DNA of 64,000 nt from an uncultured bacterium (GTDB lineage: Bacteria > Omnitrophota > Gorgyraeia > Duberdicusellales > CBEUCJ01). The notes beneath the pieces are model-generated. The model did no database searches. It saw only the letters and a program-made list of their open reading frames with translations, and was not told the origin of the DNA. Positions 4,620 to 64,000 of the stretch are shown here, piece by piece. The position numbers were made by a program, and so were the translations under genes. Position 1 is the stretch's first letter, and each line of letters opens with the position of its first letter. The stretch covers positions 131,754 through 195,753 of the forward strand of contig CBEUCJ010000001.1 of NCBI GenBank assembly GCA_965541615.1, written 5' to 3'.

Positions 4620-4651
4620 AAAATTAAATTTTAAAAAACAAAGGAGGCAAA

Positions 4652-8744: not shown

Positions 8745-8755
8745 GGAGGTGAACT

Positions 8756-10562: not shown

Positions 10563-10565
10563 AAA

Positions 10566-47569: not shown

Positions 47570-48625
47570 GTGAAGAAAATAGTTTTAATTACTGGTTCTT
47601 GTGGATTAGTAGGAGCAAGCTGTTCTGAATTTTTTTCTAAAAAAGGTTTTAAAATCATAGGAATAGATAACAATACAAGAGAAAGATTATTTGGGAAATT
47701 AGGTTCTATCAATAAGATTAAATACTATCTTAAAGAGAAAATTTCAGATTACACACATTTTGATTTAGATATTTGTGATGAAAAGAATATAGAGGATCTT
47801 TTTAAAGAATATAAATTTGATCTAATAATTCACGCTGCTGCTCAACCTTCACATGACTGGGCAAAGAAATACCCTTTATTCGATTTTAAAATAAATGCTT
47901 ATGGAACTCTTATTCTTTTAGAAAATTTTAGAAAATACAACTCTCAAGCTGTTTTCATATTCTTATCGACTAACAAAGTATATGGAGATAAAGTAAATTA
48001 TTTACCTTTTGTAGAGTTAGAAAAAAGATTTGATCTTTTACCTTCCCATCCTTACTATAAAGGAGTAGATGAAAAAATGGGTGTAGATAATACTTTACAT
48101 AGTCTTTTTGGAGCTTCTAAATTATCTGCAGATATTTTAGTTCAAGAATATGGTAAATACTACGGTTTAAAGACAGCTTGTTTTCGATGTGGTTGTATCA
48201 GTGGAAAGTTTCACTGTGGTGTAGAGCTTCATGGATTTTTATCTTATCTTGTAAGGTGTTTTATTTTAAATAAAAAGTATGTAATCTATGGTTATAAAGG
48301 AAAACAGGTAAGAGATAACTTACATGCTTATGATTTGGCAAAAGCTTTTTATTTATTTTATCTCAATCCTAAATATGGAGAAATCTATAATTTAGGAGGA
48401 GGTCGTTTTTCCAATGTCTCTGTTCTTGAAGCTATTTCTATCTGTGAGAAGATTTGTGGTAAAAAGATAGAAATAGAATATAAAGATGAAAATAGGATAG
48501 GTGATCATATTTGGTGGATTACAGATAATTCTAAGTTTAAAAAAGATTTTCCTGATTGGGAGCTTACTTATAATGTAGAAAAGATTATAGAGGAGATTTA
48601 TTTATTTCAGAAAAATAATTTTTAA
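47570..48625 (+). CDS. NAD-dependent sugar epimerase/dehydratase
   Basis: GTG start, Rossmann motif ITGSCGLVGAS, and a YxxxK catalytic dyad region. Confidence 0.8.
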   Translation: MKKIVLITGSCGLVGASCSEFFSKKGFKIIGIDNNTRERLFGKLGSINKIKYYLKEKISDYTHFDLDICDEKNIEDLFKEYKFDLIIHAAAQPSHDWAKKYPLFDFKINAYGTLILLENFRKYNSQAVFIFLSTNKVYGDKVNYLPFVELEKRFDLLPSHPYYKGVDEKMGVDNTLHSLFGASKLSADILVQEYGKYYGLKTACFRCGCISGKFHCGVELHGFLSYLVRCFILNKKYVIYGYKGKQVRDNLHAYDLAKAFYLFYLNPKYGEIYNLGGGRFSNVSVLEAISICEKICGKKIEIEYKDENRIGDHIWWITDNSKFKKDFPDWELTYNVEKIIEEIYLFQKNNF

Positions 48626-49736
48626 AATAACAAATATTAAAATCAAAAACTTATTATCTTATATAATAGCTGCTTTCCTTTTCTTACGCCCTTTCATTAG
48701 TGATCTTACTTTTGAAAAAATAGAGATTTATTTTTCATCTCTTTTTGATCTGTTTCTCTTTTTAGAAATATTTAAAAAATTCAAAAAAAAGTTTTATGCT
48801 AAATTAGTCTCTTTCTTTTTCTTAAGCTTATTAATTAATTGCGTTTATTCTCACTCTCCTATTTTAAGTACAATTTACTTTTGTAAAAAATATGTCTTTT
48901 GTCTACTCCTTTTTTATTTTTTTCTTTTAAAAACAGAAAGAGAGCTATTTTATAGAATAATTATACTTAGTGCTTTTTTTATTCTCCTTCTTAGCTTACA
49001 TGCTCATTTTGTAGTTGCGACTCATTTAAAAGAAAAGAGTGCCTCTTGGTTTATCTATGAGTTTCTTTCTCGAAAAAGGTTATTTTTTCCTTTTGTGTTA
49101 CCAGCACATTTAGCAGGATTTTTATCTATGGTTATGTTTTTCCATTACAGGACTATTTCTAACAAATTTTTGAAGATAAGTGGTTTGGTGTTCTTTCTTT
49201 TTGGCTTACTTTTAACACAATCTATAGCAGCAGTCTTTTCTCTTTTAATGAGTGTTTTTCTATGTTTATTAATTAAAAAGAAATACAAAAGAATTTTTCT
49301 TTTACTTATACCTTCTATTTTTTTGTTAGCTTTGGTATTCTTTTTACGTCTTCAATATCATAAGGACTTTACTCAACCTTATTTTTCTCTTTTAAAAAGA
49401 ATTGAATATTTTAAAGAGACGATAAAATTAATTTCTAAACATCCTCTTCGAGGAGTGGGTATAGGTTTATTTTCTTTAAAAAATACATTGTTTTCTCATA
49501 ATCTCTTTCTTCAATTATGGGCAGAAGCAGGATTTTTAAGTTTTGTATTATTTTTAATTATTTGTATCTTTTTTATAAAGAAAGGAATGAGAGTAAAAGA
49601 AGAAAAAGATTTTTATATTTTTATAGCTGGAGTATGTTTTCTCATACATAACTTAGTAGATTTTACTTTCTTCACTTTGCAAGTTTCTTTTTTATGGTGG
49701 ATTTGTTTGGGAGTAATTTTAAGTAAGAGCGAGTAA
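48573..49736 (+). CDS. O-antigen ligase / Wzy_C-family polymerase-like membrane protein (the ORF track gives only the C-terminal 213 aa, from 49095)
   Basis: Wzy_C signature H-N-x-x-L-x-x-x-x-E-x-G (SHNLFLQLWAEAGF). The frame is open and hydrophobic for about 175 additional codons upstream of the first ATG (back to 48573) but has no in-frame ATG/GTG/TTG there. Confidence 0.55.
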
Positions 49737-50687
49737 AATTACTTTTAAAGAACATAAAAAAGATAATCCAAAAAAAATAAAAAACCACAGAAATTTTTTT
49801 AAAAAAAGAAAGATACTGCTACTTGCCCATAGAGATGTTAAGAAATAAATTAAGAAAAGAGAAAAATAATAATTATTGGTTTTTCTAAATAATCTTAAAA
49901 AAAGATGGTCTTGAGTTTTTTTAAAAGGGAAGATTCTCTTTTTAATTCTTACAAGTATAAGAAATAAAGTATCTAATATAGGCAATCCTAAGAGTAATAC
50001 AGGAACAAAGATAGCAAAAACATTCTCTAAATTAGCATAGTCAATATACATGCTGATTCCTGCAAAAAGAAATCCTAAAAAATGGCTCCCAGAGTTTCCC
50101 ATAAACATCTTTGCAGGAGGAAGATTAAAAATATAAAAAATACTTAAAGAGACAAAAAGAGAAAAGAAAAAGAAGGAAAGTAAGTAATCTTTAAGAAGAA
50201 TACAAATAAAGAGAAAAAAAAGATTAACAATTAAACTTACTCCACTACATAATCCATCTTTTATATCTAAAAGATTAAAAGCATTCATAATTCCTATTAT
50301 CCAAAGAAAAGAAAGTATAAAATTTAAAAAGGAAGGAAAAAAATATATTTGAATTCTTTTAGCAAAAATAAGAAAGATAAGACAAAAAAATATATGTAGA
50401 ATAAACTTTTTTTTAAGATCAAATTCTTTTAAATCATCAAAAAATTCGATTAAAAAAATTAGAAAAGAAAACAAAAGCAAGATTTTAAAATCTTTATCTA
50501 AAGAAATGTTTTCAATAAATACAAATATAAAAAAGCTAAGGAAAAAAGAAAGAATAATTCCCAATCCTCCTAAAAAAGAGACTTTTTCTTTTGTTTTAAA
50601 AATATTAAACTTAGAAGAAAAAAAAGAAATAAAAGAAAATATAATTGGAGTTATAATTAAGGGATAAAAAAATATACTTACTTTCAT
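49719..50687 (-). CDS. Polyprenyl-phosphate glycosyl-1-phosphate transferase (WecA/MraY family)
   Basis: N..DG.DGL-type motif (NAFNLLDIKDGLCSG) and FMGNSGSHFLG. Polytopic membrane protein. Confidence 0.75.
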   Translation of the reverse strand: MKVSIFFYPLIITPIIFSFISFFSSKFNIFKTKEKVSFLGGLGIILSFFLSFFIFVFIENISLDKDFKILLLFSFLIFLIEFFDDLKEFDLKKKFILHIFFCLIFLIFAKRIQIYFFPSFLNFILSFLWIIGIMNAFNLLDIKDGLCSGVSLIVNLFFLFICILLKDYLLSFFFFSLFVSLSIFYIFNLPPAKMFMGNSGSHFLGFLFAGISMYIDYANLENVFAIFVPVLLLGLPILDTLFLILVRIKKRIFPFKKTQDHLFLRLFRKTNNYYFSLFLIYFLTSLWASSSIFLFLKKFLWFFIFFGLSFLCSLKVILLALT

Positions 50688-51784
50688 AATTTTTGATAAA
50701 GCATCTCTATTTCTCTAATATAACGCTGATAAGACCAATATTCTGTATTTAATCTTTCTCTTTCTTTTTTTATTATTCTATTCCATTCATCTATATTCTT
50801 CAACATTTCTACACATATTTTCCCTAAATTTTTTATATCTTTAAACTCTACTACAAGCCCTTGTTTTTTATTTTTTACAATATCCAAAACTCCTCCTGTG
50901 TTGGTTACAATTAAAGGTATGCCACTTATTACTGCTTCTATTACCGATAAAGGAAGCCCTTCCCAAAGAGAAGTTAATACAAAAATAATCGTTTTTTTAT
51001 AAAAATATGTAATATCTCTTTGCCATCCTAAAAGAAATACATTTTTATCTAATCTTTTCTTTTTTATTAATCTTTTTATTTTTTTTCTTAAAGGTCCATC
51101 TCCTAAAATATAAAATTTAATTTTAGGAAAAATCTTTAAAACATCTTCTGCCATATTTAAAAAATACTTTAAACCTTTCTGAGGTTTTAAAGAAGAGACA
51201 GTGATGATAAAATTATTTGAATTTCTTTCTTTAAATACTTTCTCAAAAATATTCGTTTCAATTCCATAATGAATAAGTTTTAATTTGGAAATAGGAATTA
51301 TTTTTTTGCCTTCATTTAGGTCTTTTTTAGAGACTACAATGATTTTTTTTGTAATTTTAGCTGTCAGTTTTTCTAAAAAAAGATAAAGATAATAACTCAC
51401 AGGAGAGATAAATTTGTGGAATGGCCAACCATGCACTGTGTAGACAATATTTTTGCAACCTGCAAAGAAAGCAGCCCATCTGCCTAAAAAACTTGCTTTT
51501 GGAGAATGGGTGTGAATAATATCAAATTTATGCTTCTTTATATATAAAAATATTTTTATGAAGGCAAATATATCATAAAAAATGTTTATTTCTCTTTTTA
51601 ATTCTTTAATTAGGTAAACTTTTAAATAAGGAATCTTTAAAAAATCTTTTTTTAAAAATCCATAATCACCTGCTAAAAGGAAAAGTTTATATTTTTTAGG
51701 ATCAAGATTTTTAATGAGAAGTAAAAGCTCTTTTTGAGCTCCTCCTAATTCTAAATGAGTAATGATAAACAATATTTTTTTCAT
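50684..51784 (-). CDS. GT4-family glycosyltransferase
   Basis: GT-B fold with the E(x7)E region (LTSLWEGLPLSVIEA). Confidence 0.8.
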   Translation of the reverse strand: MKKILFIITHLELGGAQKELLLLIKNLDPKKYKLFLLAGDYGFLKKDFLKIPYLKVYLIKELKREINIFYDIFAFIKIFLYIKKHKFDIIHTHSPKASFLGRWAAFFAGCKNIVYTVHGWPFHKFISPVSYYLYLFLEKLTAKITKKIIVVSKKDLNEGKKIIPISKLKLIHYGIETNIFEKVFKERNSNNFIITVSSLKPQKGLKYFLNMAEDVLKIFPKIKFYILGDGPLRKKIKRLIKKKRLDKNVFLLGWQRDITYFYKKTIIFVLTSLWEGLPLSVIEAVISGIPLIVTNTGGVLDIVKNKKQGLVVEFKDIKNLGKICVEMLKNIDEWNRIIKKERERLNTEYWSYQRYIREIEMLYQKL

Positions 51785-52881
51785 AGTTTGGAGAAAAGAT
51801 CATTAATTTTAGATTCATAAAAAGAAAAAGAAAACTCTTTAGGTAAAAAAAGTTTTTTTTCTGAAATAGGTTTTTTTATTTTTTGGATAACTTTTTCTAA
51901 TTCATTTAACTCAAATATATTTCTGCTTTTGAAGATCTCTTTTATCTCTTTTGCTCCTCCTTTGAAAGGGAAAAATACATATTTACCATAAAAAATAGCT
52001 TCTAAGATAGCTATTCCAAAAGGCTCTTCTTTTAAAAAAGGAAAAACACAAATATCTGATAAAGATAAGATTTTATCTATGTCTTTTCTGAAACCTAAAA
52101 GATATACATTTTTTAATCCTTCTTTTTCAATAAACTTTTTTATTTTCTTCTTATAAAGTTTATTTTTTAAAGTAAAAGGAGTAATCTCTCCTACAATTAA
52201 GATGATTAAATTTTTCTTTTCTTTAATCACTCTTTTATAAGTCTTTAAAAATTCAAGTTGGCCTTTTTCTGGATGGATACGGGAGATGATACTCAAAATT
52301 ATAGATTCTTTAGGAAAGCCCATTTCTTTTCTTAAAATAAATTTATCATAAAAATTAAATCTTTCTTCATCTACCCCTTCATATATAAGATATGTTTTTT
52401 TAGAAAGAAAAAGTTTTTCTTTTATCGCCTGAGATTGTACAACTATAACATCAGAAAGTGCAGAAACTATTTTTCCCAATATATAATTTAAAGGCGAAAG
52501 GAAAAAGAATTCTCTTATATACCAAACGTGTTTTTTAAAAGTTATTTTTGCTACCAAAGATGAAAAATAAATTAATAAAGAATTAGTAACGATAATGTCA
52601 ATGGGTTTTTTAATTACATAAAAAGAAAAATAAAGAAAAGAAAAAAGAGAAAATAAAAGAAACTTTAAATAATAAATTGGAGAAAGAGAAAAGATCAAAA
52701 CAGGAAGAGGAAAGATAATAATTTTTACATTCAATTTTTTTAATTCTTCTTCTAAAGGCCCCTTTTTAGGAATAACACAGATAATCTCAAATTTTTTTGA
52801 TAACGCTTTTATTAAATTGATCAATCCTCTTTCAGCTCCATAAAGATAATTTCCTGGGTTAAATATAAGAATTTTTTTCAT
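51781..52881 (-). CDS. GT4-family glycosyltransferase
   Basis: GT-B fold (FPFLKEEPFGIAILEA). Confidence 0.75.
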   Translation of the reverse strand: MKKILIFNPGNYLYGAERGLINLIKALSKKFEIICVIPKKGPLEEELKKLNVKIIIFPLPVLIFSLSPIYYLKFLLFSLFSFLYFSFYVIKKPIDIIVTNSLLIYFSSLVAKITFKKHVWYIREFFFLSPLNYILGKIVSALSDVIVVQSQAIKEKLFLSKKTYLIYEGVDEERFNFYDKFILRKEMGFPKESIILSIISRIHPEKGQLEFLKTYKRVIKEKKNLIILIVGEITPFTLKNKLYKKKIKKFIEKEGLKNVYLLGFRKDIDKILSLSDICVFPFLKEEPFGIAILEAIFYGKYVFFPFKGGAKEIKEIFKSRNIFELNELEKVIQKIKKPISEKKLFLPKEFSFSFYESKINDLFSKL

Positions 52882-53723
52882 TTTTTGAGCATGTTAGGTA
52901 ATTCTTTAAATATCTGAAAAAAATAAGGATTAGTAAGAGCAAAATATAAAGATCTGGTTATTTCGTAAGGAAAGCTTTTTAAGAAAAATAAGAAAGATTT
53001 TTTCTTATGATATTTTAATATAACATATAATCTGTTTCTAAAGCACAAATATTTTCTTAATTTTTTAGATATAGGAAAGCCTCCTCCATAATGAAAACAG
53101 ATAAGTTGAGGAAAAAAATTAGTCTTAATATTATATTTTTTCATTTTCATATATAAATCTAATTCTTCAAAAAGAAAAAATATTTTATTATCGAAGACTT
53201 CTCCTTTTTCTTTTATTTTTTCTAAAATTTCCTTTTTAAAGATAGCACAACATAAATTAGGAGCATCTACAAAAAAGGAAGAAGAAAACTTTTTTGGAGA
53301 TTGGTTTTTTCCAATATCATATATTCTATAGAAAGAGCTTATTTTCAATCCACAAGAAAAGATTTTTTTATTTTTTTGATTGATAATTTTAGGAGCAATG
53401 ACAAAATCTATTTTATTTTGAGATATTATTTTTTCTAATTCAAAGAAAAAATTTTTCTCTAAAAAAGCATCACTATCCATGAACATAATAAAATCTCCAT
53501 TTGCTTTTTTAATACCTTCATTGCGAAAAAAACAAGCTCCTTTATTTTCTTTAAATGGAATTATTTTGAAATTATTCGATAATTTTAAATTTTTTTTCAA
53601 AGATATTTTCCCAACCAGAAGAATTTCTATTTTATAAGATTTTTTTTGGTAAAATGATGAAAGAAAATTTAATGTTGAAGGGATTAAATCATTTCCTATA
53701 GGGATAATTACAGATATTTTCAT
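52878..53723 (-). CDS. GT2-family glycosyltransferase
   Basis: N-terminal ISVIIP and a DxD motif (DSDAF). Confidence 0.75.
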   Translation of the reverse strand: MKISVIIPIGNDLIPSTLNFLSSFYQKKSYKIEILLVGKISLKKNLKLSNNFKIIPFKENKGACFFRNEGIKKANGDFIMFMDSDAFLEKNFFFELEKIISQNKIDFVIAPKIINQKNKKIFSCGLKISSFYRIYDIGKNQSPKKFSSSFFVDAPNLCCAIFKKEILEKIKEKGEVFDNKIFFLFEELDLYMKMKKYNIKTNFFPQLICFHYGGGFPISKKLRKYLCFRNRLYVILKYHKKKSFLFFLKSFPYEITRSLYFALTNPYFFQIFKELPNMLKK

Positions 53724-54296: not shown

Positions 54297-54590
54297 ATGT
54301 GTAGAGAGGAGATAATAGAAAAAATTTTAGTACCCAATGAAGAGATAATTTCATTTAAGGAGATTGATGGAGAGATCGTTTTTTTTCACAAAGAAGAGAG
54401 AAATCTTTATGAATTGAATGAGACAGCAAATTTTATTTGGAAAGAGTTAATTAAAGGAAAGAAACCTAAAGATGTTATAAGAAGTATGCAAAAAAAGTTT
54501 AAAGAAATAAAAAAAGAAGTTTTAGAAAAAGATGTTTTGGATTTTATAAAAAAATTAATTGACAAAAAAATATTTTTGGTCAAAAAATGA
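54297..54590 (+). CDS. PqqD-family protein (RiPP recognition element, RRE)
   Basis: 97 aa with the PqqD signature (LYELNETANFIWKEL...G...P.DVI..M...F....E.LEKDVLDFIKKLIDKKI). GGAGGTG RBS. Confidence 0.8.
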   Translation: MCREEIIEKILVPNEEIISFKEIDGEIVFFHKEERNLYELNETANFIWKELIKGKKPKDVIRSMQKKFKEIKKEVLEKDVLDFIKKLIDKKIFLVKK

Positions 54591-54674: not shown

Positions 54675-55880
54675 ATGGATCGAGAGTTTGAAGTAATCAA
54701 ATACTTAACAAAAGAAGTAGTATATGGAAGATATAAAGAACATTTGATAAATTTTTTAACTTCTACTAAGTTAGAGTGGGAAAAGTTAAAGTTCATGTTA
54801 CTTTACAATGAGTTAGCTTCTTTTTTATATATAATATTAAAAAACAATTCCTTATCTCTTCCTTTTGATTTTCTTTCTTTTCTTAAGAATGTCTATTATA
54901 GAGACTTATTTAGATATATTGTATTATTTAATGAGTTATTGACTATACTAGATGCGGCTAATAAGAAGTCAATTCTTATCATACCCATAAAAGGTTTTTC
55001 TATCGGTGAAGAGTATTACAAAAAATTCGGTTTTAGACCTTTGAGTGACATAGATTTATTAATTAAAGAGGAAGAATTAGAAAAAGGAATAAAACTTTTA
55101 TGCGAATTAGGATATGAGAAAAATTTTTTTGGAGCTAAAGAAAGTTATTGGCGTAATAAACAATGTCATATAAACTTTCTAAAAAGAAATAAAAACGGAT
55201 CTATTCTAGTAGAACTTCATTGGTCTTTAGATTTTAAAAGAGACAATAAATATGCCCTTTCTTGTTTATGGAAAAGATTGAAGAAAGTAAAAATAAAAGA
55301 TAAAGAAATTTTTGTTATGGCACCAGAGGATACTTTATTTTCTCTAGCACTTCATCAAAGAAGATTTGGGAAAGTATTTAATCTCAAATATATTTGTGAT
55401 GTAGGCATTATCTTAGAAAAGGAAAAACTTAATTGGGAATATATAATCGAGGCTGCTTATCGAGAAAGAATTAAAGCTTCTTTGTATTTTTTACTATATC
55501 AGACACAGATTATTTTAGATAAAGATCTCAGTAAGTATTTAAAAAAACTAAGAATTAGTTCTTGGCATAAAAGACTAATTTCTTGTGTTATTAGAAAATA
55601 TACAAAATCTTTTATAACTCCTTTTAATCTAAAATATGTCTATACAATTTGTCATTTTCTTCTCTACGACAATATACTCTATCCTATCAAATACGTTTTT
55701 ACTGTTCCTCAGGAACAATTTGCAAAATTTTATCATCTTCCTTTTTATACACCAACTACAGAGAGACTTTATAAACTAAGATATTTATATATTCCTTATA
55801 AAACTGTTAAGGAATTGTTGGATAGGAAAATCTTTAAACGGAATTTTTTAGAAAAATTTAATAGCTGTTTATTTTTGTAA
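54675..55880 (+). CDS. Uncharacterised nucleotidyltransferase (PF14907/NTP_transf_5-like)
   Basis: 401 aa with a GFRPLSDIDLLI nucleotidyltransferase motif. This family is recurrent in RiPP cassettes. Confidence 0.6.
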   Translation: MDREFEVIKYLTKEVVYGRYKEHLINFLTSTKLEWEKLKFMLLYNELASFLYIILKNNSLSLPFDFLSFLKNVYYRDLFRYIVLFNELLTILDAANKKSILIIPIKGFSIGEEYYKKFGFRPLSDIDLLIKEEELEKGIKLLCELGYEKNFFGAKESYWRNKQCHINFLKRNKNGSILVELHWSLDFKRDNKYALSCLWKRLKKVKIKDKEIFVMAPEDTLFSLALHQRRFGKVFNLKYICDVGIILEKEKLNWEYIIEAAYRERIKASLYFLLYQTQIILDKDLSKYLKKLRISSWHKRLISCVIRKYTKSFITPFNLKYVYTICHFLLYDNILYPIKYVFTVPQEQFAKFYHLPFYTPTTERLYKLRYLYIPYKTVKELLDRKIFKRNFLEKFNSCLFL

Positions 55881-56608
55881 GAAGAAGGAATATAAATATA
55901 AATATTCTCTCTTTTCTTTACTACTTCTAAACCTTTCTTAATTAAATGTGATCCTACGCCTCTAGCACGATATAATAGTTTTACATAAGGACCTAGAAAT
56001 AAAATATTATGAGAATTTTTATCTTTTAATATCCAAAGTTTACCTATAGGGATTTTCTCTATTACAGCTACAAGTTTATAGAGAATTACCCAAGAGGGAT
56101 TAGGAAAAAAAATATTATAAAAACTTCTAAATAAAATTTCTTCCTCTTCTTTTCTAACTAAAATATACTTCACCTTCTTTAAAGGAAATAATTTTTTTAA
56201 TAATTTTCTAAAAAAATTAGAAGAATAAAGAATTTCTGTAAATAAATAAGTCGATTCTTTTAAAAAAGAAAAGAAGTTTACAAAAATATAATATAAAAAA
56301 GTATTTTCAAATTTTAAATATTTCAACTTATCTTTTCTATATACGCCTATCACTTTTCCCAAGATATCCTTTGCTTTAACTTTTTCTTTTTTCCAAAAAT
56401 TGAAATCTCCTTTGGTATAAATAATATTATTGTTTTTATCTATTTTTATAACTCTATGGCATATGTACTGCCTTTTTTTTCTAAAAATAATAATATCTCG
56501 AAGAAAAATCTGTGATAAGTTAGTTTTTTTGACTAAAATTTTTTCTTGATTTCTTATAGTAGGATACATACTTTGACCTCTTGAGAGTAAATAAAAGATT
56601 CTTCTCAT
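55796..56608 (-). CDS. Signal peptidase I (S26, Ser/His SipW-like)-GNAT acetyltransferase fusion protein
   Basis: N-terminal S26 boxes (GQSMYPTI, YICHRVIKI with His in place of the bacterial Lys, TKGDFN). C-terminal GNAT motif A (YRARGVGSHLIKKGLE). Confidence 0.55.
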   Translation of the reverse strand: MRRIFYLLSRGQSMYPTIRNQEKILVKKTNLSQIFLRDIIIFRKKRQYICHRVIKIDKNNNIIYTKGDFNFWKKEKVKAKDILGKVIGVYRKDKLKYLKFENTFLYYIFVNFFSFLKESTYLFTEILYSSNFFRKLLKKLFPLKKVKYILVRKEEEEILFRSFYNIFFPNPSWVILYKLVAVIEKIPIGKLWILKDKNSHNILFLGPYVKLLYRARGVGSHLIKKGLEVVKKRENIYIYIPSSYKNKQLLNFSKKFRLKIFLSNNSLTVL

Positions 56609-57389
56609 TTAATAATTTTTAATTAATTCCAAAATTATTAAGAGTGAGAGTTTCAAAAAATCTTTGTTTTATATTCGGGATGACTTCCATAGAGATTTTC
56701 ACCAAAAAATTAATCAAAAGATATTTTCATCTTCTATAAGTACCCCATATTTTTATCCCTTTCTACTAAAACTTCAAATTCAGATATATCATTAACTAAT
56801 AAAGCAGTCAATAGTTTTGTTATTACTTCCATAAGAAAAATAGCAATTAGCTCAGATTTTGTTTTATTGTGATGTTTTTATTTTTTAAACAAATTTTGGA
56901 TTAGAGAGTTTATAGTGAAACATTGTTTCTTTATAAAATATCAAGAAGATAAAAAGCATATTCTCTCCTTAAGAGACGAGTATTTTTTAATTGAAGAGAT
57001 GAAAAAACCAAGACTAAGATAGGCTGATATATTCTCATACTGCCACAAATAGAATATCAGAACAAAATTAAAAGATAAAAAAGTTGCAGAGAATTAAAAA
57101 AATATAGAGTTTTTGAATATAATCAAATCGATGTAAAAAAGATTCAAAAATATTCCTAACCTTTGGGTTTATATGGAAGGATTTGATATTTCCAAATGTT
57201 AAATAGCTTTTGGAGAATTATCTGCAAGAGATAGTTTCTACGTTATACTGTAAAATTTTTACATAATCATTTATTTCAAAACAAAAGTAGAAGCATTTGA
57301 GCATTCTTAATCAGAGGAAAATATCTATTCTCTTTAAAAGAAAAAGGAGTAAAATATAGAAAATAGTTTTTTAAAAACATTAAAAATTT

Positions 57390-57473
57390 ATGGATAATGT
57401 AGTGTTAAGAACCTGCTCATTTTCAACTTTAGAGATTATTTTCTATTTTTCAATTTTGTTTTTAGAAAGTTAA
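57390..57473 (+). CDS. Candidate 27-aa small ORF immediately upstream of, and coupled to, the radical SAM gene
   Basis: ATG...TAA ends 1 nt before the rSAM ATG and encodes MDNVVLRTCSFSTLEIIFYFSILFLES. No clear SD sequence. Confidence 0.2.
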   Translation: MDNVVLRTCSFSTLEIIFYFSILFLES

Positions 57474-57474
57474 T

Positions 57475-58560
57475 ATGAGAAAAAGAGATAAAAATATCCT
57501 TTTTACCCCTTTTCTTATCCAATGGCATATTACCGAGAGGTGTAATTGGAACTGTTTGCACTGTTATAGGAAGAGAAATTCATGTGTAGATTTACCCTTA
57601 AGTGATTTGAAGTATATTCTTCATCAGTGTTTGGGATTATTGGAAGTCTTAGATGTAAAAGATGTGCGAATAAATATTGGAGGAGGGGAGCCGTTTTTAA
57701 GAGAAGATATTTGGGATTTCATAAAGATATTAAAGAAATACAAAGAGATAAAATTGTATATTATGACAAATGGGTCTTTAATTTCTAAAGATGTAGCAAG
57801 AGCACTTTCAAAGATTAAAACTCTTAAAGGAGTTCAGGTAAGTATGGAAGGGTTAAAAGAAACTAATGATAAAATAAGAGGAAAAGGGAGTTTTGAGAAA
57901 ATAGAAAGAGCCATTCGAACTCTAGTCAAGTATAATATTTTTACTAGAGTTTCAGTGACTCTTACAAAGTTAAATTTAGAAGAAATAGAACCCTTGGTAT
58001 CATATCTTAAGGAGTTAGGAGTAAATAATGTCGGTATAAGACGGTTTGTTCCCGTAGGAAAAGGAGAAATTTTAAAAAAGTATATGCTTTCACCATTGGA
58101 GACGAGGGATTTTTATCTATTTAGAGAAGAACTTATGGATAAATATTGTGATAAAAATTTTACAATTTCTTATGGATGTGAAGATGGACTTCTTGTTCAA
58201 GAGGTTGAGAAAATAAGTAAGAAAAGGAGGAAATATCTATACTATACAAATTGTGCAGTATTAAGAAGGAGGGCTCTTACTATTCTTGATAATGGAGATA
58301 TACTTTTGTGTAGGAGGCTTCCTATAAAGATTGGCAATGTTTTTGAAAAAAACTTAGAAGAGATTTTCTTTTTTTCAACACTTGTTCAAAAAATGAGTAA
58401 TTGGAGGAATTTTCTTTCGTATTGTGAAGATTGTCCTTTTTTTTCTTATTGTTTAGGAGGAGCAAGATGTATTGCCTATGGATTCTTTAAAAAAATAGAT
58501 GCACCAGATCCTCAATGTTGGAGGCTCTTTACAGTATTACCTAATTCTGGTATAATTTAA
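57475..58560 (+). CDS. Radical SAM/SPASM-domain peptide-modifying enzyme
   Basis: CxxxCxxC (CNWNCLHC), GGGEPF, and a C-terminal SPASM Cys cluster (CEDCPFFSYCLGGARC). Confidence 0.85.
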   Translation: MRKRDKNILFTPFLIQWHITERCNWNCLHCYRKRNSCVDLPLSDLKYILHQCLGLLEVLDVKDVRINIGGGEPFLREDIWDFIKILKKYKEIKLYIMTNGSLISKDVARALSKIKTLKGVQVSMEGLKETNDKIRGKGSFEKIERAIRTLVKYNIFTRVSVTLTKLNLEEIEPLVSYLKELGVNNVGIRRFVPVGKGEILKKYMLSPLETRDFYLFREELMDKYCDKNFTISYGCEDGLLVQEVEKISKKRRKYLYYTNCAVLRRRALTILDNGDILLCRRLPIKIGNVFEKNLEEIFFFSTLVQKMSNWRNFLSYCEDCPFFSYCLGGARCIAYGFFKKIDAPDPQCWRLFTVLPNSGII

Positions 58561-58578: not shown

Positions 58579-58731
58579 GTGAAAAAGAAATTCTTAATTA
58601 ATTTTCAAGAAAGTAAGAAGAAAGATGCCATTCAAAAAAAAGTTTATCAGAAACCAAAGATAAAAAGAGTTGTCTACAAGAAGAAGAAGCTTCCTGTAGC
58701 TATAGCACAGAGTTGCGCCCTTTGTGTATAG
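58579..58731 (+). CDS. Candidate RiPP precursor peptide (50 aa; not in the ORF track, which stops at 60 aa)
   Basis: GTG start 7 nt after a GGAG (AAAAGGAG) RBS. Encodes MKKKFLINFQESKKKDAIQKKVYQKPKIKRVVYKKKKLPVAIAQSCALCV: a Lys-rich leader and a Cys/Ser-containing C-terminal core. Lies between the rSAM/SPASM gene and the HprK-like kinase. Confidence 0.5.
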   Translation: MKKKFLINFQESKKKDAIQKKVYQKPKIKRVVYKKKKLPVAIAQSCALCV

Positions 58732-58744
58732 TTATTTTTAATAA

Positions 58745-59635
58745 ATGCCCTTTTCCTACCAAATAGTCCTTAATAATTTCTCTCTTTCCTTGCATATACA
58801 AGCTGAAAGTTATGTTATTCAGATAATCAGGAAATTCTTACTATATATTTCTCCATGGATTAGAATAGAGAAAATAAAAGGGTACGATAAGAATTTTCAG
58901 ATTTATTTAAAGCCTCTTTCAAAGCCATCTGTAAGACTTCTAGGTGGAGGAAACAAAATTGTGAAGGAAGAAATTAGAAATAAAGATGAGTTTATAATAT
59001 GGTCATCATGGGATGGCTCTTTTTTAAAGACCGATCTTAGGAAAAAAATAGCATATGGAGAATTAGGGAAAAATGAAGTAATAGGTATTTCTATCTTAAG
59101 ACGTTGGTTTGAGACTTTTGTATTCTTAAATAATTGTATTTTTTTACATTCAGCTAATATAAAAGTTAAAAATACATTGAGTACTCTTCTTATAATAGGC
59201 GACTCTGGAAGTGGAAAGAGCACCTTATCTTCTCTTATAAGAAATTATTTCCATTTTAAAGTCATAGATGATGATATAACAGGGTTATTGGATTTTAAAA
59301 AGATTTACTCTTTTTCAATTAGATTTATTTCTTCTTTGGGAAATTTTTTAGAAGTAGAGGCTCTAAAGTTAGAACCAATAGGAATTCCCAGGTTTATTCT
59401 ATTTGTAGAGAGAAAGAAGACAATGTCTAAATTGTGCAGATTAACTTCTAAAGAAGCTTTTAAAAGAGTATGTTTTTTTGCTGAATTTTCCTCTTTTGAT
59501 AATAAAATGTTTGAGCATAAGGTGAAGATTCTAGATAAATTAATAAATCAATGTAATTGTTTTTTGTTAATAAATGGTAAAGATATTTCTAAAGATCCTT
59601 CAAAATTAATCTCACTTTTTTCTTATATTATTTGA
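58745..59635 (+). CDS. HprK-related P-loop kinase (HPr kinase C-domain-like)
   Basis: FLHSANIKVKNTLSTLLIIGDSGSGKSTLS...FKVIDDDITGL parallels the HprK P-loop (GDSGVGKSE) and the following ADD segment. Confidence 0.65.
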   Translation: MPFSYQIVLNNFSLSLHIQAESYVIQIIRKFLLYISPWIRIEKIKGYDKNFQIYLKPLSKPSVRLLGGGNKIVKEEIRNKDEFIIWSSWDGSFLKTDLRKKIAYGELGKNEVIGISILRRWFETFVFLNNCIFLHSANIKVKNTLSTLLIIGDSGSGKSTLSSLIRNYFHFKVIDDDITGLLDFKKIYSFSIRFISSLGNFLEVEALKLEPIGIPRFILFVERKKTMSKLCRLTSKEAFKRVCFFAEFSSFDNKMFEHKVKILDKLINQCNCFLLINGKDISKDPSKLISLFSYII

Positions 59636-60584
59636 CATTTAAAAACTTATCCCATGGGATATGGAGTCTACCCATTATACATTCACCTTTTTCATCTAAT
59701 GTAGGCAACAATAAACATCGAAATTTGCAATAAGGAAGAAGATAGCAATTTTTACACACATCTTCTATTTTTTCTCTATGTTTAAAAGGATATTTTGTGG
59801 TTTTTTTCTTTGTACACGAACTTAAAGATCCATCTGTGTCAATAACCGTTACTCCTTCTGTACAGAAATAGGAACAACCTATCATAGGAATTAATTTATA
59901 TCTTTGAGGAACTAATAAGAAAGAAAAATATCTAACTAAAGAATTTTTACCAAAATAATGATTAAAATCATAGAGTAGTCTATTTAAAATGTCGAAAAAA
60001 TCGTGATGGGGCAAATAATCTTTTCTGTTTTTCGAAAAAACAGGAATTTCTCTTTCCCAAAATATTTCATCTATTAGTTCTTCCTTTAAGAGTTTAATTA
60101 CCAATGAGATTAACCAGTTATATGATGTTTTTCGCAGTAAAGTAACTACTACTTTTATTTTAATATTTTCTTTCTTAACATATCTAAGATATTTAAAAGC
60201 TTCTTTTTGATTTCTCCAAAAATTTCTATACTTGTCTAGAGAAATGGTTAAAGTTAAATGGTTACGTTGTATGAAATCTATACGTTCTTCAATTTTATCT
60301 TTTCTAAAGAAAAAATCAGGATTAGAGGTAATTTCTATATCTACGTCAGGAAAGTTTTTAGAGACGATACTTGCTATTTCATTTAATTTATGAATATCTA
60401 TAGTAAAAGGTTCTCCACCGTGGATAATAACTTTTTGGATTTCTTCTTTTTTAATTTTTTTTATAGATTCCATTAATACGGTCGGAGTTATCATTCTCTT
60501 GGGTGTTTTTTTTACATAACAATGAGGGCATCTAAAAGGGCAGTAATTGGTAGTTTCAATGACTAAAGTTTTTGGAAATGTCAT
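59628..60584 (-). CDS. Radical SAM/SPASM-domain enzyme (second maturase)
   Basis: CxxxCxxC (CPFRCPHC), GGEPF, and a C-terminal Cys cluster (CKNCYLLPYCKFRC). Confidence 0.8.
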   Translation of the reverse strand: MTFPKTLVIETTNYCPFRCPHCYVKKTPKRMITPTVLMESIKKIKKEEIQKVIIHGGEPFTIDIHKLNEIASIVSKNFPDVDIEITSNPDFFFRKDKIEERIDFIQRNHLTLTISLDKYRNFWRNQKEAFKYLRYVKKENIKIKVVVTLLRKTSYNWLISLVIKLLKEELIDEIFWEREIPVFSKNRKDYLPHHDFFDILNRLLYDFNHYFGKNSLVRYFSFLLVPQRYKLIPMIGCSYFCTEGVTVIDTDGSLSSCTKKKTTKYPFKHREKIEDVCKNCYLLPYCKFRCLLLPTLDEKGECIMGRLHIPWDKFLNVK

Positions 60585-61573
60585 TTCTCATTGCTCATTG
60601 CCCTTTCAGCTTCTAATAATATACAATTTACTTCTTTACTTTCTTCAACAGTAAACATTGAAGGAGTTTTAAGAATTACAGGGATTTCTAAGATGATTGA
60701 TACTATTTTAGTTGGAATATTTTTAAATCTAGATGGAATCCATAATTTTGTATATTCTCGAGGTAATAATTCTTTAGCTATTCTCGAATAAGAAAAATTT
60801 TTATACTCTTCTTTGATTAAATGAGAGAGCTCATGTTTTGATAAAATTTTTTTAATCAAGTAGAGTTTTTTATTAAGTCGTATTAATTTTTTTAACATTA
60901 TTGAAGAAGGATGGAAAGCGTATGTCTTGTAAACTATATGATCATCTTCTTTTATATTTATATTCCGGAACACTCCTAATGTGGAGAACCTGTATTTGGG
61001 CGATGTTTTGAAAAATATAGGGAAATATATTTTATCTTCTGCCCCACAATGTTTGTAGATTTCTAAATATGCATTTTTTATCCTTTCTCTTTCCTCAGAA
61101 TTCTTAAATATTTTATTAAAGTTTATTACCTTTGGAGAAACGAATAAAATAATATCTCTTATTTTGTTATCTTTATGTAATGTGATAGATTTAATTGTAC
61201 GGAATTTTAGAAATTGTAATTTGTCTTCTCTTACTGCCATATAGTAGATGTCATCATTGGGACGATAAGGTAAGGCTTTGTAGGAAATGGAAGGAAAAAG
61301 CAGACGGTTATTTTTTATTTTTCCATAAAGAAGAATACTTTCTTTGAATGATAGATATTTAGCATTGTTGAGCAAAGTTTTTATTTTATTTAAAGATATT
61401 TCTCCATTATCTATCAGGTCTGAATATTTTGCTTTAAGTAGATATATAGACGTATAATAGGGAATTCTTTTTTCTGAGAGAAGCCAAAAATAAAGAGCAG
61501 CTAATACCGTGAGACAAATTATTAGTAGGAATGAGATTTTTGTTTTTTTAGAGAATTTCAATATGTGAGTCAT
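60581..61573 (-). CDS. Hypothetical membrane-anchored protein
   Basis: 330 aa with an N-terminal TM helix and no recognisable domain. Overlaps both flanking genes. Confidence 0.4.
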   Translation of the reverse strand: MTHILKFSKKTKISFLLIICLTVLAALYFWLLSEKRIPYYTSIYLLKAKYSDLIDNGEISLNKIKTLLNNAKYLSFKESILLYGKIKNNRLLFPSISYKALPYRPNDDIYYMAVREDKLQFLKFRTIKSITLHKDNKIRDIILFVSPKVINFNKIFKNSEERERIKNAYLEIYKHCGAEDKIYFPIFFKTSPKYRFSTLGVFRNINIKEDDHIVYKTYAFHPSSIMLKKLIRLNKKLYLIKKILSKHELSHLIKEEYKNFSYSRIAKELLPREYTKLWIPSRFKNIPTKIVSIILEIPVILKTPSMFTVEESKEVNCILLEAERAMSNEK

Positions 61574-63059
61574 TATTCACCTCCTCTTTTATTATTTCTT
61601 CCATATTTTTAAATACCACTTCCTTATTTTCAAAAAAAATATTGCTTCCTACTTTAAGAATATTTTTTACTTTTCCTTGAGAAATATTTTTTAAACTCTT
61701 ATTTCTTAATTTTCCTATTATAGCAAAGTACTCATCGCTCTCCTTTTCTTTAAATACTCTTATTATATTTTCAAAGTTTTTTCGAAGAAAATCCCTATAA
61801 TAATTATTCCATAAAAAGGAAAGATTTCTAACTAATAAAATATACTTAATATTTTTTTCTTCTACAAAAAATAATTTAGAAATTTCCACCCTTTTAACTA
61901 ATATCACTTTTTTATTTAAGAGTTTTATGGACTTAATTACTTTATCTATAGGTATTGTATCAGGTATAAAACCTTTGTAGTTTCCACATGGTAAGAGAAT
62001 TCTATCTTTAAATTCGTTCTTAATTTTGTTAAATGTATTAAAGTCACCCGTTATTTCTATTCTATCTTGCATTACTCTTATACATATATATTCTCTGTTT
62101 AAAAGATAATTTCCGACTAATAGAAATCCTCCAATAAATGGAGTATTTTTGTTTGTAAAAAAATATAATCCTATATCAGATATTCTTTTATTTAATGGGA
62201 AAAAAGGAGCTTTATTGAACCAAAAAAAGACGGCACGGATGATATAGAGGAGGACAATAATTTTAACTTCAAGCATATCTGTGCTTGCTATACTCCAGTT
62301 AGGTATGAAGCAGGGGGGTAGGTATAGGAAACTTTCAAGAGTAAAAGTGCCTCTTTTGTTTTTATGGATAAAGAATACGCTATGGTTATCTTCGTTTATG
62401 CAAGACGATTTTAAGCGGGTTACTCTATGGATAGTTACTATAGGAAGAAAATCGGGAGAGATTTTCATTAAATTACATAAGAAAGCACTATTTTTTAGAT
62501 AATTTATCCTGACTTTATTTTTTTCTATAATAACATTTATAAAAGAGTCTATAAATATTTCAAAAATTCCATCTTTTTTATTATGATTTACTAAAGAAAC
62601 TCTATATTTTCTTATTCTGTCTATAGTTTTTATGAAGAGCTCTTGAATTGTCTCTTTTTCTAAAAATAATATTTTATAGAGAATATCACCTGTGGGGGTA
62701 AGAACAAGTAAAGGATACAATAGATTTAAATTAAAAGGCTTTTCCGTATTTATTTTTATACTTTTGAAGAGAAAAACCTTTTCCTTATTATATATTTCTA
62801 TCCAAACACCAAAGTTAAAGAAGACTGATCTATCTTTTTCTTCTGATGTAGTATGAAAATTTTCGAAATTAATAATTTCTCGTCTTGAGAAATAATTTAT
62901 GAGCTCTTCGTTCTTATAAGAAATCATATAAGAAATCAACGGAATGATATGTGTTTTCTCCTTTTCGAAATACAAAGATTTTTCCAAAAAGTTTTTGTAA
63001 TCAGATAAATTCTCTTTATTTTTATAATCTTCCAAAAATCTTCTAATTAAAGTCGACAT
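61548..63059 (-). CDS. Hypothetical protein (503 aa)
   Basis: Long ORF in operon with the neighbouring genes. No recognisable motif. Confidence 0.4.
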   Translation of the reverse strand: MSTLIRRFLEDYKNKENLSDYKNFLEKSLYFEKEKTHIIPLISYMISYKNEELINYFSRREIINFENFHTTSEEKDRSVFFNFGVWIEIYNKEKVFLFKSIKINTEKPFNLNLLYPLLVLTPTGDILYKILFLEKETIQELFIKTIDRIRKYRVSLVNHNKKDGIFEIFIDSFINVIIEKNKVRINYLKNSAFLCNLMKISPDFLPIVTIHRVTRLKSSCINEDNHSVFFIHKNKRGTFTLESFLYLPPCFIPNWSIASTDMLEVKIIVLLYIIRAVFFWFNKAPFFPLNKRISDIGLYFFTNKNTPFIGGFLLVGNYLLNREYICIRVMQDRIEITGDFNTFNKIKNEFKDRILLPCGNYKGFIPDTIPIDKVIKSIKLLNKKVILVKRVEISKLFFVEEKNIKYILLVRNLSFLWNNYYRDFLRKNFENIIRVFKEKESDEYFAIIGKLRNKSLKNISQGKVKNILKVGSNIFFENKEVVFKNMEEIIKEEVNNDSHIEIL

Positions 63060-64000
63060 TTTTTAAATTATTAAAGAATAATTTTGCTAGCTTTAGAGAG
63101 TATAGATAATCTTCAGAAAAAATTCTATCCTTAGGATACATAAAAGGTATAAATCCATTTTTAAGAATTATTCCACTAAGGTTAAGGATAACTTTCTTAT
63201 TTTTCATTTCTATTAATGAAAGTTTCTCCAAACATGCTAAATGATCTTCTAGTAATTGAAAAAGAGAAGGAGGCAACATAGCTTCATAACACCAATATAA
63301 GAGAAGTCGGAATCTAGATACCTCTAAGGAGATATTTTTTTCTTTTTTAAAAAGAATATTCTCTAAACCACGTTTTTTTATATTTAAGAAATACTGAGGG
63401 GGATTAGGGTTTACTTTATTTAGATCATAATAACGTGTTTCTGCAAGAGGTCCTAAACCTATTTGGATAGTTTTTCCATTGAAAATTTCTTTATTAATCT
63501 TTATTTCCTCATAGGGAAAACTTTTTGTCGTTTTTTTAAAAGTAAATCTAATTCCTGCTCCTCCCTTTCTTATGAACAAATTATTTTTTATAAAGTTATT
63601 GCTCACTATGAAAGAGAAAAGAATCCTTTTTATAATGTCTTCTAAGAAGGAGTATTTTGGAGAGTAGATTTTGTTCATTCTTTTTTTAGAACTGTAGTTA
63701 TAAAGAGTAATAAAAATTTCTTTATTATCTTTGAAGTTTTTTAGGAAAGATATAAGATTTATTAAATCTGTTAAATAATTAAAATTAACTTCAGGATAGT
63801 CTATAATAAGATCAATATTTAAACTCAAATCTAACTCTAATACATTTTTTATGCCTTCTAGTACTGTATCCTTTGTATAACGTCTTTCCATTTTTTTTAA
63901 AATACTATTTCTAAGACTTTCTACCCCTAGAGAGATATAATTGAAACCAATATCCTTCAAATTCTTAAGGAAATTTTTGTCTATGCCATATTTATCAGGA
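63043..64000 (-). CDS. Radical SAM-family protein, C-terminal portion (N-terminus beyond the window end)
   Basis: The frame stays open to the window edge. The ...GFNYISLGVESLRNSILKKMERRYT... block is typical of the radical SAM core downstream of the CxxxCxxC loop, which would lie outside the window. Confidence 0.55.
   Translation of the reverse strand, partial: PDKYGIDKNFLKNLKDIGFNYISLGVESLRNSILKKMERRYTKDTVLEGIKNVLELDLSLNIDLIIDYPEVNFNYLTDLINLISFLKNFKDNKEIFITLYNYSSKKRMNKIYSPKYSFLEDIIKRILFSFIVSNNFIKNNLFIRKGGAGIRFTFKKTTKSFPYEEIKINKEIFNGKTIQIGLGPLAETRYYDLNKVNPNPPQYFLNIKKRGLENILFKKEKNISLEVSRFRLLLYWCYEAMLPPSLFQLLEDHLACLEKLSLIEMKNKKVILNLSGIILKNGFIPFMYPKDRIFSEDYLYSLKLAKLFFNNLKNVDFN

Follow-up and report, generated by a model that had tools for sequence, protein, structure and literature searches.

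A stretch of DNA of 64,000 nucleotides from an uncultured Omnitrophota bacterium (hereafter, the window) carries a gene whose product joins an S26B-like peptidase domain to an acetyltransferase domain of the GNAT family. The identity of these two domains is close to certain, and the gene very probably belongs to a cassette for producing a ribosomally made peptide with post-translational modifications (RiPP). We hypothesize that the protein is a two-headed maturation enzyme, in which the peptidase domain would cut the leader from a precursor peptide and the GNAT domain would acylate the product at one position or another, and we assign this proposal a probability of about 0.45. The parts are familiar ones; their combination and its role, that of an S26B-type leader peptidase partnered by a PqqD-family protein and carrying or lacking a GNAT domain, appear to be undescribed.

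A soluble peptidase domain with a Ser/His dyad

The preliminary description of this DNA had reported the open reading frame (ORF) as a SipW-like signal peptidase I fused to a GNAT domain, and the ORF and all of the motifs quoted for it are indeed found on the minus strand. In DNA of about 27% GC content, the peptidase half is encoded with box B as G11-Q-S13-M-Y-P-T, a box C-like RDIIIF, box D as I-C-H51-R-V-I-K-I, with a His at the position of the Lys of LepB, and box E as T-K-G-D68-F-N. The C-terminal half holds Y-R214-A-R-G217-V-G219-S-H-L, which conforms to the R-x-x-G-x-G of GNAT motif A.

Profile hidden Markov models (HMMs) place the N-terminal half among the S24/S26 peptidases. Pfam Peptidase_S24 matches the fusion protein with 24.3 bits (E 2.6e-5), which exceeds its gathering score of 23.3, and Peptidase_S26 of the same clan falls short of its own (16.6 versus 22.9 bits). 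Among NCBIfam models, TIGR02228, which represents signal peptidase I of the archaeal type, matches best (48.2 bits, E 1e-12, slightly under the cut-off of 51.85), with bacterial signal peptidase I and SipW as runners-up. Three relatives (P0041, P0034 and P0045) pass TIGR02228 with 62.1, 54.7 and 56.0 bits, respectively. Moreover, for a profile built from peptidase-only relatives, human SEC11C (E 2.1e-10) and SEC11A (E 9.2e-10) rank above the bacterial signal peptidases that have a Ser/Lys dyad, and the Ser, the His and the TKGD-box Asp of the two human proteins line up with Ser13, His51 and Asp68. The scores for Peptidase_S24, TIGR02228 and SEC11 are all far better than chance would give.

Conservation was counted in a census set made up of the window protein and 154 listed relatives (P0001-P0154, representing 50%-identity clusters), all aligned to the family profile. 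Ser13 is present in 142 of 144 sequences, His51 and Arg52 in 152 of 153 each, and Asp68 in 148 of 153; the Ser, His and Asp are kept together by 69 of the 73 relatives that carry the fusion. The near-invariance of these residues across about 150 diverse relatives argues for catalysis. With SEC11 as the best profile match and its Ser, His and TKGD box aligned, the assignment of a Ser/His dyad of the eukaryotic, archaeal and SipW type holds.

Membership in signal peptidase I proper was overstated. An S26-type domain is recognized by HMM, by structural model and by fold matches, but the N-terminal membrane anchor of that family is absent: only 10 residues precede G11-Q-S13-M14, and the highest 19-residue hydropathy of the window protein is 1.3, below the usual transmembrane threshold. 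The domain is also somewhat shorter than the approximately 110 residues first given for it, spanning approximately 100 before two long helices (104-140) lead into the GNAT domain. A true membrane signal peptidase was rejected because the N-terminal anchor is missing. A LexA/UmuD-like self-cleaver (S24, with a Ser/Lys dyad) was rejected because residue 51 is His rather than Lys and because SEC11 is the best profile match. Given that a GNAT domain on the same chain needs acyl-coenzyme A (acyl-CoA), the active site of the peptidase should face the cytoplasm, and the fusion enzyme would therefore be a cytoplasmic, perhaps membrane-tethered, relative of the signal peptidases.

A helical linker and a GNAT domain

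An AlphaFold2 model built from an eight-sequence alignment, with a mean pLDDT (predicted local distance difference test score) of 81.4, comprises a beta-domain at residues 4-97, helices at 104-129 and 131-140, and an alpha/beta domain at 147-261 whose elements follow the GNAT order (strand, helix, three strands, helix, strand, helix, strand). When compared with the PDB by Foldseek, the N-terminal half matches LexA C-domains and SpsB, and the C-terminal half matches AAC(3), Naa50, Naa60, GCN5 and Hpa2 (probability 1.00 and E 1.5e-4 to 3e-3 in both cases). The inactive SipA of S. pyogenes is also among the fold matches, and Naa50 and Naa60 are among the nearest solved GNATs of the window protein. 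The N-terminal domain passes the Pfam threshold for Peptidase_S24, and a GNAT fold is predicted for the C-terminal domain.

Orthologues of the window protein score 26.5 (locus L006), 27.4 (L005) and 26.3 bits (L014) on the Pfam GNAT model, the L005 protein passing Pfam S24 as well, and more distant fusions reach 49-67 bits. The motif that contacts the CoA pyrophosphate, R/Q-x-x-G-x-G/A, is present in the window protein, and among 83 relatives its positions are occupied by R in 78, by G in 68 and by G or A in 77. Motif B of the window protein, at the quoted KFRLKIF, is atypical, reading FSKKFRL versus F-Y-x-K-x-G-F in relatives. Among NCBIfam models, the GNAT halves of relatives score best on RimI, an N-terminal acetyltransferase (37-47 bits, under the cut-off).

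The two linker helices are amphipathic in the window protein and hydrophobic in distant relatives, where hydropathy reaches 2.0-2.2 versus the maximum of 1.3 here. As modeled, such helices could make a membrane-associating hairpin, and a hairpin of two helices would leave the peptidase and the GNAT domain on one side of the membrane, namely the cytoplasmic side.

Gene calls that omit the catalytic serine

In public data, the gene is called as a protein of 257 residues (P0001) that starts at Met14 (56567-56608 region of the window, minus strand). Met14 occupies the invariant Met position in the catalytic G-x-S-M, and a start at this codon drops the nucleophile, Ser13. The 13 codons ahead of it are open and encode a conserved strand followed by G-Q-S; homologues have N-termini of similar length and keep the portion of G-x-S-M that lies upstream of the Met. 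Because a Met14 start deletes Ser13 and homologues conserve the upstream residues, Met1, encoded by an ATG (56606-56608) immediately 3' of a stop codon, is most likely the true start in preference to Met14. The same truncated call is found for approximately 10 of the 154 related proteins, among them P0001, P0009, P0012 and P0016. Gene callers thus often begin these genes at the Met of G-x-S-M, and the catalytic Ser is silently lost from the annotation.

A conserved peptide cassette

The fusion gene sits between two plus-strand operons, one encoding a PqqD-family protein and an NTP_transf_5 protein, the other a radical S-adenosylmethionine (SAM)/SPASM protein, a precursor peptide and a P-loop protein related to HPr kinase (HprK) and ScmC. 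This cassette, including the peptidase with or without its GNAT domain, recurs independently in different lineages, at five loci in all (the window, L001, L006, L014 and L015). Across the window, L006 and L014, identity is 49% for the radical SAM/SPASM proteins and 27-30% for the P-loop proteins. A PqqD gene accompanies the peptidase in seven of eight informative contexts, which makes PqqD its constant partner. Assignment of the fusion to a RiPP setting is borne out by this recurrence of orthologous radical SAM/SPASM and HprK-like genes, together with a precursor family and a PqqD protein that resembles the B1 proteins of lasso peptide pathways.

The PqqD protein of the window finds its best PDB matches in TbiB1 (E 6.7e-7), TfuB1 and another lasso PqqD chaperone, and its best NCBIfam matches are lasso PqqD chaperone models, below cut-off. 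The radical SAM/SPASM protein is matched best by the NCBIfam models of the ACGX, GeoRSP and SbtM maturases, in each case below cut-off. The HprK-like protein gives only weak PDB matches, to ABC-transporter ATPase domains over residues 130-205; its orthologues in L014, L006 and L001 match Hpr_kinase_C, ScmC or HprK_rel_A. No informative PDB relatives were found for the NTP_transf_5 protein. The NTP_transf_5 and fusion genes are convergent, and their 3' ends overlap by 85 bp (55796-55880). Convergent overlaps recur in L001 (63 bp, 10799-10861) and L014 (24 bp, 10802-10825), a layout that is both conserved and unusual.

The peptidase and PqqD also occur by themselves. In L008 (3148-3854) and L016 (7748-8492), a PqqD gene overlaps that for a peptidase-only relative to form a two-gene unit, with no radical SAM, kinase or recognizable precursor gene nearby; the pair in L008 is adjoined by a YfhO gene (3901-6633).

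Precursor peptides with a lasso-type leader

The precursor encoded in the window has a Lys-rich leader containing YQKPKIKRV. Y-x-x-P-x-Φ is the leader motif bound by lasso B1 proteins. Only six of 1931 small ORFs across all loci examined match Y.KP..K[KR][VI]; all six are syntenic, and two of them come from duplicates of the window's own genome. A fifth precursor is found in L015. At the equivalent position, each of the five loci has a small ORF with this leader motif, which in four of them lies just 5' of the gene for the HprK-like protein. The precursor is not covered by any NCBIfam model.

Read by eye, the five precursors each have a small-x-small site a short way ahead of the Cys-containing core; the sites are AIA/Q, GAA/G, VAS/S, TTA/C and VLG/S (the slash marks the candidate cut). 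In the window, cleavage at A-I-A/Q is possible, and the core would then be QSCALCV.

In L001 (2918-7516), the same leader family precedes a core rich in Cys, Ser and Thr (…TTTACDISCTSCIFCSSSCT), with a B12-radical SAM gene before it and ThiF, YcaO and nitroreductase genes after it. The latter three are suggestive of an azole-forming set, and the module of leader, PqqD and peptidase seems to be shared among different chemistries.

The best promoter-like site of the 6-kb region (58528-58556; 11 of 12 positions, with a TG before the -10 hexamer) lies just 5' of the precursor gene, and a hairpin with T-rich sequence (58705-58727) overlaps its end; both calls are consensus matches only, and overall site counts are near shuffle expectation. 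Transcription of the precursor may exceed that of the enzymes.

A widespread family with varied fusions

An exhaustive profile search of 1.84 billion cluster representatives gave roughly 13,000 hits, of which 24 were at E<=1e-30 and 693 at E<=1e-10. Loci were scanned with one alignment (A1), which recovered only two genome loci and five metagenome loci; a more diverse alignment (A2) was too variable for scanning, and its use in a word-indexed protein search added few members. Seven homologues with 38-44% identity share both halves and conserve G-[QSN]-S-M-F-P-T, C-H-R, Y-T-K-G-D-F-N and G-P-Y-V-K-L-L-Y-R-A-R-G-I-G. Among the listed relatives, 73 have both domains, a further 10 are fusions whose start is called at the Met of G-x-S-M, and 71 are peptidase-only proteins (approximately 140-150 residues). 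A weak 274-residue match (P0162, in L007) that lacks a RiPP context was set aside as not a true member.

The peptidase is also joined to other partners. Fusions with NTP_transf_5 (PF14907), alone or with GNAT, are seen in P0042, P0090, P0108, P0115, P0118 and P0154, where the domain order is peptidase, GNAT, NTP_transf_5 in four proteins, peptidase, NTP_transf_5, GNAT in one, and NTP_transf_5, peptidase in one. P0068 carries peptidase, GNAT and a GT2 glycosyltransferase, and in P0077 a peptidase with Ser, His and Asp intact precedes an ATP-binding cassette (ABC) exporter of the bacteriocin type.

Annotation pipelines label these relatives 'signal peptidase I', 'S24/S26 family peptidase' or 'GNAT acetyltransferase'. 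Neither NCBIfam nor Pfam offered a curated family for the fusion or for the anchor-less peptidase, and the literature searched (signal peptidase with GNAT and PqqD; S24/S26 with RiPP; SynChlorMet; PF14907) yielded no paper on the fusion or on the function of such an enzyme. The preliminary description had not recognized the architecture as a described one; in public metagenome data it is nevertheless common, as about 80 of the 154 clusters (50% identity) carry it.

Proposed function and its alternatives

In the pathway that we envision, the PqqD protein would grip the YxKPxΦKxV leader of the 50-residue precursor while the radical SAM/SPASM, HprK-like and NTP_transf_5 proteins would modify its short Cys/Ser core. 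The peptidase domain, using Ser13, His51 and Asp68, would remove the leader, probably after a small-x-small site (A-I-A/Q in this instance), and would thereby fill the role of the lasso B2 cysteine protease. It is given the place of B2 because the peptidase-NTP_transf_5 fusions mirror those of lasso pathways, for which a review notes that some nucleotidyltransferases are joined to the leader protease B2 in one protein (PMC8498205). The GNAT domain would then acylate the product, most simply with an acetyl group, and the likeliest target would be the newly exposed alpha-amino group. We regard the identity of the domains, the conservation of the catalytic residues, the conserved cassette and the precursor family as shown; the action of the peptidase on this precursor, the position of its cut and the acceptor of the GNAT domain are points that we infer. 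Its role as a PqqD-assisted leader peptidase we judge to be reasonably probable. The complete sequence of cutting and then N-acetylating, which the preliminary description had put forward, is plausible, and the small-x-small sites, the RimI/Naa50-like GNAT domains and the ABC-exporter fusion may hint at it; taken as a whole, it remains a tentative scheme with the odds running against it.

Several observations weigh against a two-headed maturation enzyme. On its own, the window protein scores 17.9 bits on Pfam Acetyltransf_1 versus the required 20.7, and it has Ser253 where the catalytic Tyr usually stands (among 76 relatives, Tyr in 53, Phe in 16, Leu in four and Ser in two). Among GNATs, the helix that follows strand 5 commonly, although not universally, supplies a Tyr as general acid. 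The top fold matches of the GNAT half are aminoglycoside acetyltransferases, and likeness of fold or sequence does not identify the acceptor. The GNAT domain is dispensable, as the orthologous cassette of L015 has a peptidase-only protein. Small-x-small sites are frequent by chance, and their spacing from the YxxP motif varies across the five precursors. The better ribosome-binding site (AGAGG, 7 nt upstream) precedes Met14, the choice of gene callers; this AGAGG is itself built from conserved R-G codons. Finally, genes for membrane glycosyltransferases or polymerases (GT1/GT2/GT4, Wzy_C and PMT_2 among them) flank the cassette in the window, in L001 (12023-12736), in L006 (13011-14534) and in L014 (12074-13780), and a glycosyltransferase gene lies 5' of the fusion gene in L005. 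Because such neighbors recur and a GT2 fusion exists (P0068), the pathway may concern glycosylation or the cell envelope more than the proposed scheme does.

The most serious alternative keeps the leader peptidase and gives the GNAT domain a different task: acylation of a Lys side chain or of an amino sugar added by way of the HprK-like, NTP_transf_5 or glycosyltransferase proteins, or transfer of a fatty-acyl group in place of acetyl. The aminoglycoside (amino-sugar) acetyltransferases among the fold matches speak for this idea, as do the glycosyltransferase genes beside the cassette in the window, L001, L005, L006 and L014 and the joining of the module to NTP_transf_5 in varied orders and once to GT2. 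It has a precedent in lasso pathways, whose peptides receive a phospho-hexose decoration through HprK-type kinases and the nucleotidyltransferase PsmN (PMC6993621, PMC8498205); in pseudomycoidin, the kinase phosphorylates the C-terminal Ser and PsmN is needed for the hexose on that phosphate (PMC6993621). We nevertheless consider this alternative unlikely, given that the GNAT halves are nearest in sequence to the N-terminal acetyltransferases RimI and Naa50, that fusion to a protease most simply implies direct hand-over between active sites, and that Pfam and NCBIfam scans revealed no aminotransferase or amino-sugar synthesis gene within the cassette. More improbable still is an immunity or recycling enzyme that would inactivate the mature peptide within the producer by cleaving and/or acetylating it. 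Resistance often relies on acetyltransferases, and microcin C producers offer a parallel in the acetyltransferase MccE and the peptidase MccF. Moreover, the fusion gene is transcribed alone, opposite to both flanking operons and behind an 866-bp non-coding gap, and the GNAT domain is optional across cassettes. The tight pairing with PqqD, even in two-gene units, points instead to precursors that still bear a leader; the cassette has no other leader peptidase, and the exporter fusion P0077 fits processing during export.

Two further alternatives each have very little chance of being correct. The protein could be a signal peptidase like SipW that serves a secreted protein of the envelope or matrix, with a GNAT domain that acetylates a polysaccharide or envelope component; it would then be part of the adjacent glycosyltransferase/Wzy locus and not of the peptide cassette. 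Signal peptidase I families, including SipW, do provide the best NCBIfam matches, a Wzy_C, PMT_2 or glycosyltransferase gene adjoins the cassette in the window, L001, L005, L006 and L014, and YfhO lies beside the PqqD-peptidase pair in L008. However, the window protein has neither an N-terminal signal anchor nor any segment over the transmembrane hydropathy threshold, a GNAT domain that depends on cytoplasmic acyl-CoA would put the active site on the wrong side for Sec substrates, and the steady partner is PqqD rather than a gene for a secreted protein. The peptidase-like domain could also be a self-cleaving switch of the LexA/UmuD type, or a silent peptide-binding scaffold like the pilus chaperone SipA, that regulates or targets the GNAT domain. 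Peptidase_S24 as the best Pfam match would suit this possibility, and LexA C-domains and the inactive S. pyogenes SipA do appear among the fold matches. Set against it are a general-base His in place of the Lys of S24 self-cleavers, SEC11 as the best profile match, Ser, His and Asp that are almost invariant over approximately 150 relatives, and 71 peptidase-only relatives that have nothing to regulate.

Features of the window and of related loci

The coordinates of the features discussed above are collected in the table, together with the gene content and precursors of the related loci.

Table. Features of the fusion gene and its cassette in the window, followed by corresponding cassettes and precursors elsewhere
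Feature	Positions	Strand	Basis or content
Fusion gene: S26B-like peptidase, helical linker and GNAT, 270 residues	55796..56608	minus	ORF list, HMM domains, model
Peptidase domain, residues 1-100	56309..56608	minus	Pfam S24 residues 4-86; TIGR02228 residues 11-88; SEC11A/C alignment; model beta-domain 4-97; residue census
Catalytic codons Ser13; His51; Asp68	56570-56572; 56456-56458; 56405-56407	minus	residue census
Linker, residues 101-143, two long helices (104-129 and 131-140)	56180..56308	minus	model secondary structure, hydropathy
GNAT domain, residues 144-270, motif A R214-x-x-G217-x-G219, motif B atypical (Ser253 for Tyr)	55799..56179	minus	HMM, model, Foldseek, census
PqqD-family peptide-binding protein (RiPP recognition element, RRE), nearest lasso B1	54297..54590	plus	Pfam PqqD 51.5 bits
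NTP_transf_5 nucleotidyltransferase-fold protein	54675..55880	plus	PF14907 121.2 bits
Radical SAM/SPASM peptide maturase	57475..58560	plus	Pfam Radical_SAM and SPASM
Precursor peptide, 50 residues, MKKKFLINFQESKKKDAIQKKVYQKPKIKRVVYKKKKLPVAIAQSCALCV	58579..58731	plus	GTG start, AAGGAG 8 nt upstream, conserved leader motif
HPr-kinase-like/ScmC-like P-loop protein	58745..59635	plus	P-loop matches and weak HprK_rel_B/A
Cassette of L001, 33-kb metagenome contig			two PqqD, B12-radical SAM, ThiF/YcaO/nitroreductase, ScmC/HprK-like, radical SAM, fusion, convergent NTP_transf_5, Wzy_C
Cassette of L006, Planctomycetia metagenome-assembled genome (MAG)			PqqD, radical SAM/SPASM, methyltransferase protein, P-loop protein, radical SAM, fusion, NTP_transf_5, PMT_2
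Cassette of L009			three radical SAM genes, ScmC, fusion
Cassette of L014			radical SAM/SPASM, PqqD, radical SAM, HprK-like, glycosyltransferase, phosphodiesterase, fusion, convergent NTP_transf_5, PMT_2
Cassette of L015, Acidobacteriota MAG			PqqD, radical SAM, ScmC-like, peptidase-only relative, C25 peptidase, NTP_transf_5
Precursor, window			...VYQKPKIKRV...LPVAIAQSCALCV
Precursor, L001			...QYEKPLCKKV...VITTTACDISCTSCIFCSSSCT
Precursor, L006			...AYEKPRLKKI...DIGAAGVSSCY
Precursor, L014			...LYKKPQMKKV...ELVASSGGGGCSCY
Precursor, L015			...SYSKPEIKQV...EEAVLGSCKSS...CSTSGS

The 866-bp gap on the 5' side of the fusion gene (56609-57474) contains no convincing ORF. A gene remnant in this gap was considered and rejected, as tblastn searches with the extra genes that L001, L006 and L014 have at that position gave no match. 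Pfam and NCBIfam scans of the ten ORFs from 54.3 to 64 kb gave no match to a B2 protease or to an Asn-synthetase-like lasso cyclase, and with both absent a lasso cluster was rejected.

On the PqqD side of the cassette lie genes for glycosyltransferases, Wzy_C and an epimerase (47570-53723). On the opposite side, a minus-strand block (59628-63960) includes two radical SAM genes (59628-60584 and 63043-63960, the latter extending further in L002) and genes for proteins of 330 and 503 residues that have no Pfam or NCBIfam match. Elsewhere (6879-14275, 20032-21210 and 31580-33112), the window encodes subunits I, A and B of a V-type ATPase in one operon, a protein weakly like 'methanogenesis marker 16', and RpoD. 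This RpoD shares 58-62% identity with many Candidatus Omnitrophota proteins, and all of its nearest named relatives come from that phylum, in agreement with a host that is probably an Omnitrophota bacterium; the contig is carried by hydrothermal samples.

Implications and comparison with known systems

Leader removal is the least understood step of many RiPP pathways and often blocks heterologous production. If a PqqD-guided leader peptidase is indeed encoded here, then the fold of signal peptidases is added to those of known RiPP proteases, an explanation is gained for hundreds of anchor-less genes annotated as 'signal peptidase I' or 'GNAT', and radical-SAM peptide clusters of uncultured phyla gain a new marker for genome mining. 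The fusions with GNAT, NTP_transf_5, glycosyltransferase and ABC exporter suggest an assembly line that links cleavage with capping, decoration or export. In the broadest form of the idea, soluble Ser/His peptidases of the Sec11/SipW type would constitute, with PqqD, a new and widespread class of RiPP leader peptidases and a non-orthologous replacement of B2; the GNAT fusion would be a 'cut-and-cap' enzyme; and the products would form a new class of peptides (lasso-type leader, radical-SAM-modified Cys core, possibly phospho-glycosylation) in Omnitrophota, Planctomycetota and Acidobacteriota. We consider it doubtful that all of this will prove correct.

Among characterized enzymes, the closest relatives of the peptidase domain are those of S26 subfamily B (Sec11 and SEC11A/C, archaeal signal peptidase I and SipW of Bacillus), with which it shares the fold, G-x-S-M-x-P, x-H-R-x, T-K-G-D and the general-base His. 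SipW has a C-terminal anchor, and the fusion protein likewise has a helix after its catalytic domain. Unlike these enzymes, it lacks an N-terminal anchor, confines its peptidase to approximately 100 residues, carries a fused CoA-dependent domain and has PqqD rather than Sec as its partner. SodX (TIGR02754), the maturation protease of nickel superoxide dismutase, is a similarly minimal and soluble S26-family protein of approximately 90 residues, to which the window protein is weakly matched (E 0.004). SodX removes an N-terminal propeptide in the cytoplasm and is a Ser/Lys enzyme with a single protein substrate; in contrast to the fusion, it has no PqqD partner and no GNAT domain.

At the level of the pathway, the lasso set (B1 and B2, HprK-type kinase and nucleotidyltransferase, as for paeninodin and pseudomycoidin) offers the nearest parallel. 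The cassette resembles it in the B1-like PqqD protein, in the YxxPxΦ leader, in having HprK-like and nucleotidyltransferase-fold proteins, and in a protease that is sometimes fused to the nucleotidyltransferase; PsmN we take to be a member of PF14907. It differs in lacking the transglutaminase-like B2 protease and the cyclase, in having as its protease a Ser/His homologue of S26B enzymes and as its maturases radical SAM/SPASM proteins, and in its short cores, which contain Cys. SynChlorMet (ScmC, ScmD and ScmE/F) is another point of reference: the HprK-like proteins of relatives match Pfam ScmC, and the PqqD and radical SAM proteins weakly match ScmD and ScmE/F, but the scores of the cassette are far under the equivalog cut-offs. 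We know of no peptidase-GNAT gene in the Scm cassette.

The proposed coupling of leader removal to a second activity also has partial precedents. Exporters of the C39 type, peptidase-containing ABC transporters (PCATs), share with P0077 the order of N-terminal cytoplasmic peptidase, ABC membrane domain and ATPase; the peptidase of P0077 is a Ser/His S26B enzyme rather than a papain-like Cys protease, and the window protein is not fused to a transporter. GodH of goadsporin and MdnD/MvdB of microviridin are GNAT N-terminal acetyltransferases of RiPP pathways. As these do, the GNAT domain of the window protein lies in a RiPP cluster and could acetylate the alpha-amine freed by leader removal. Whereas GodH and MdnD/MvdB are stand-alone enzymes, it is covalently joined to the presumed leader peptidase.

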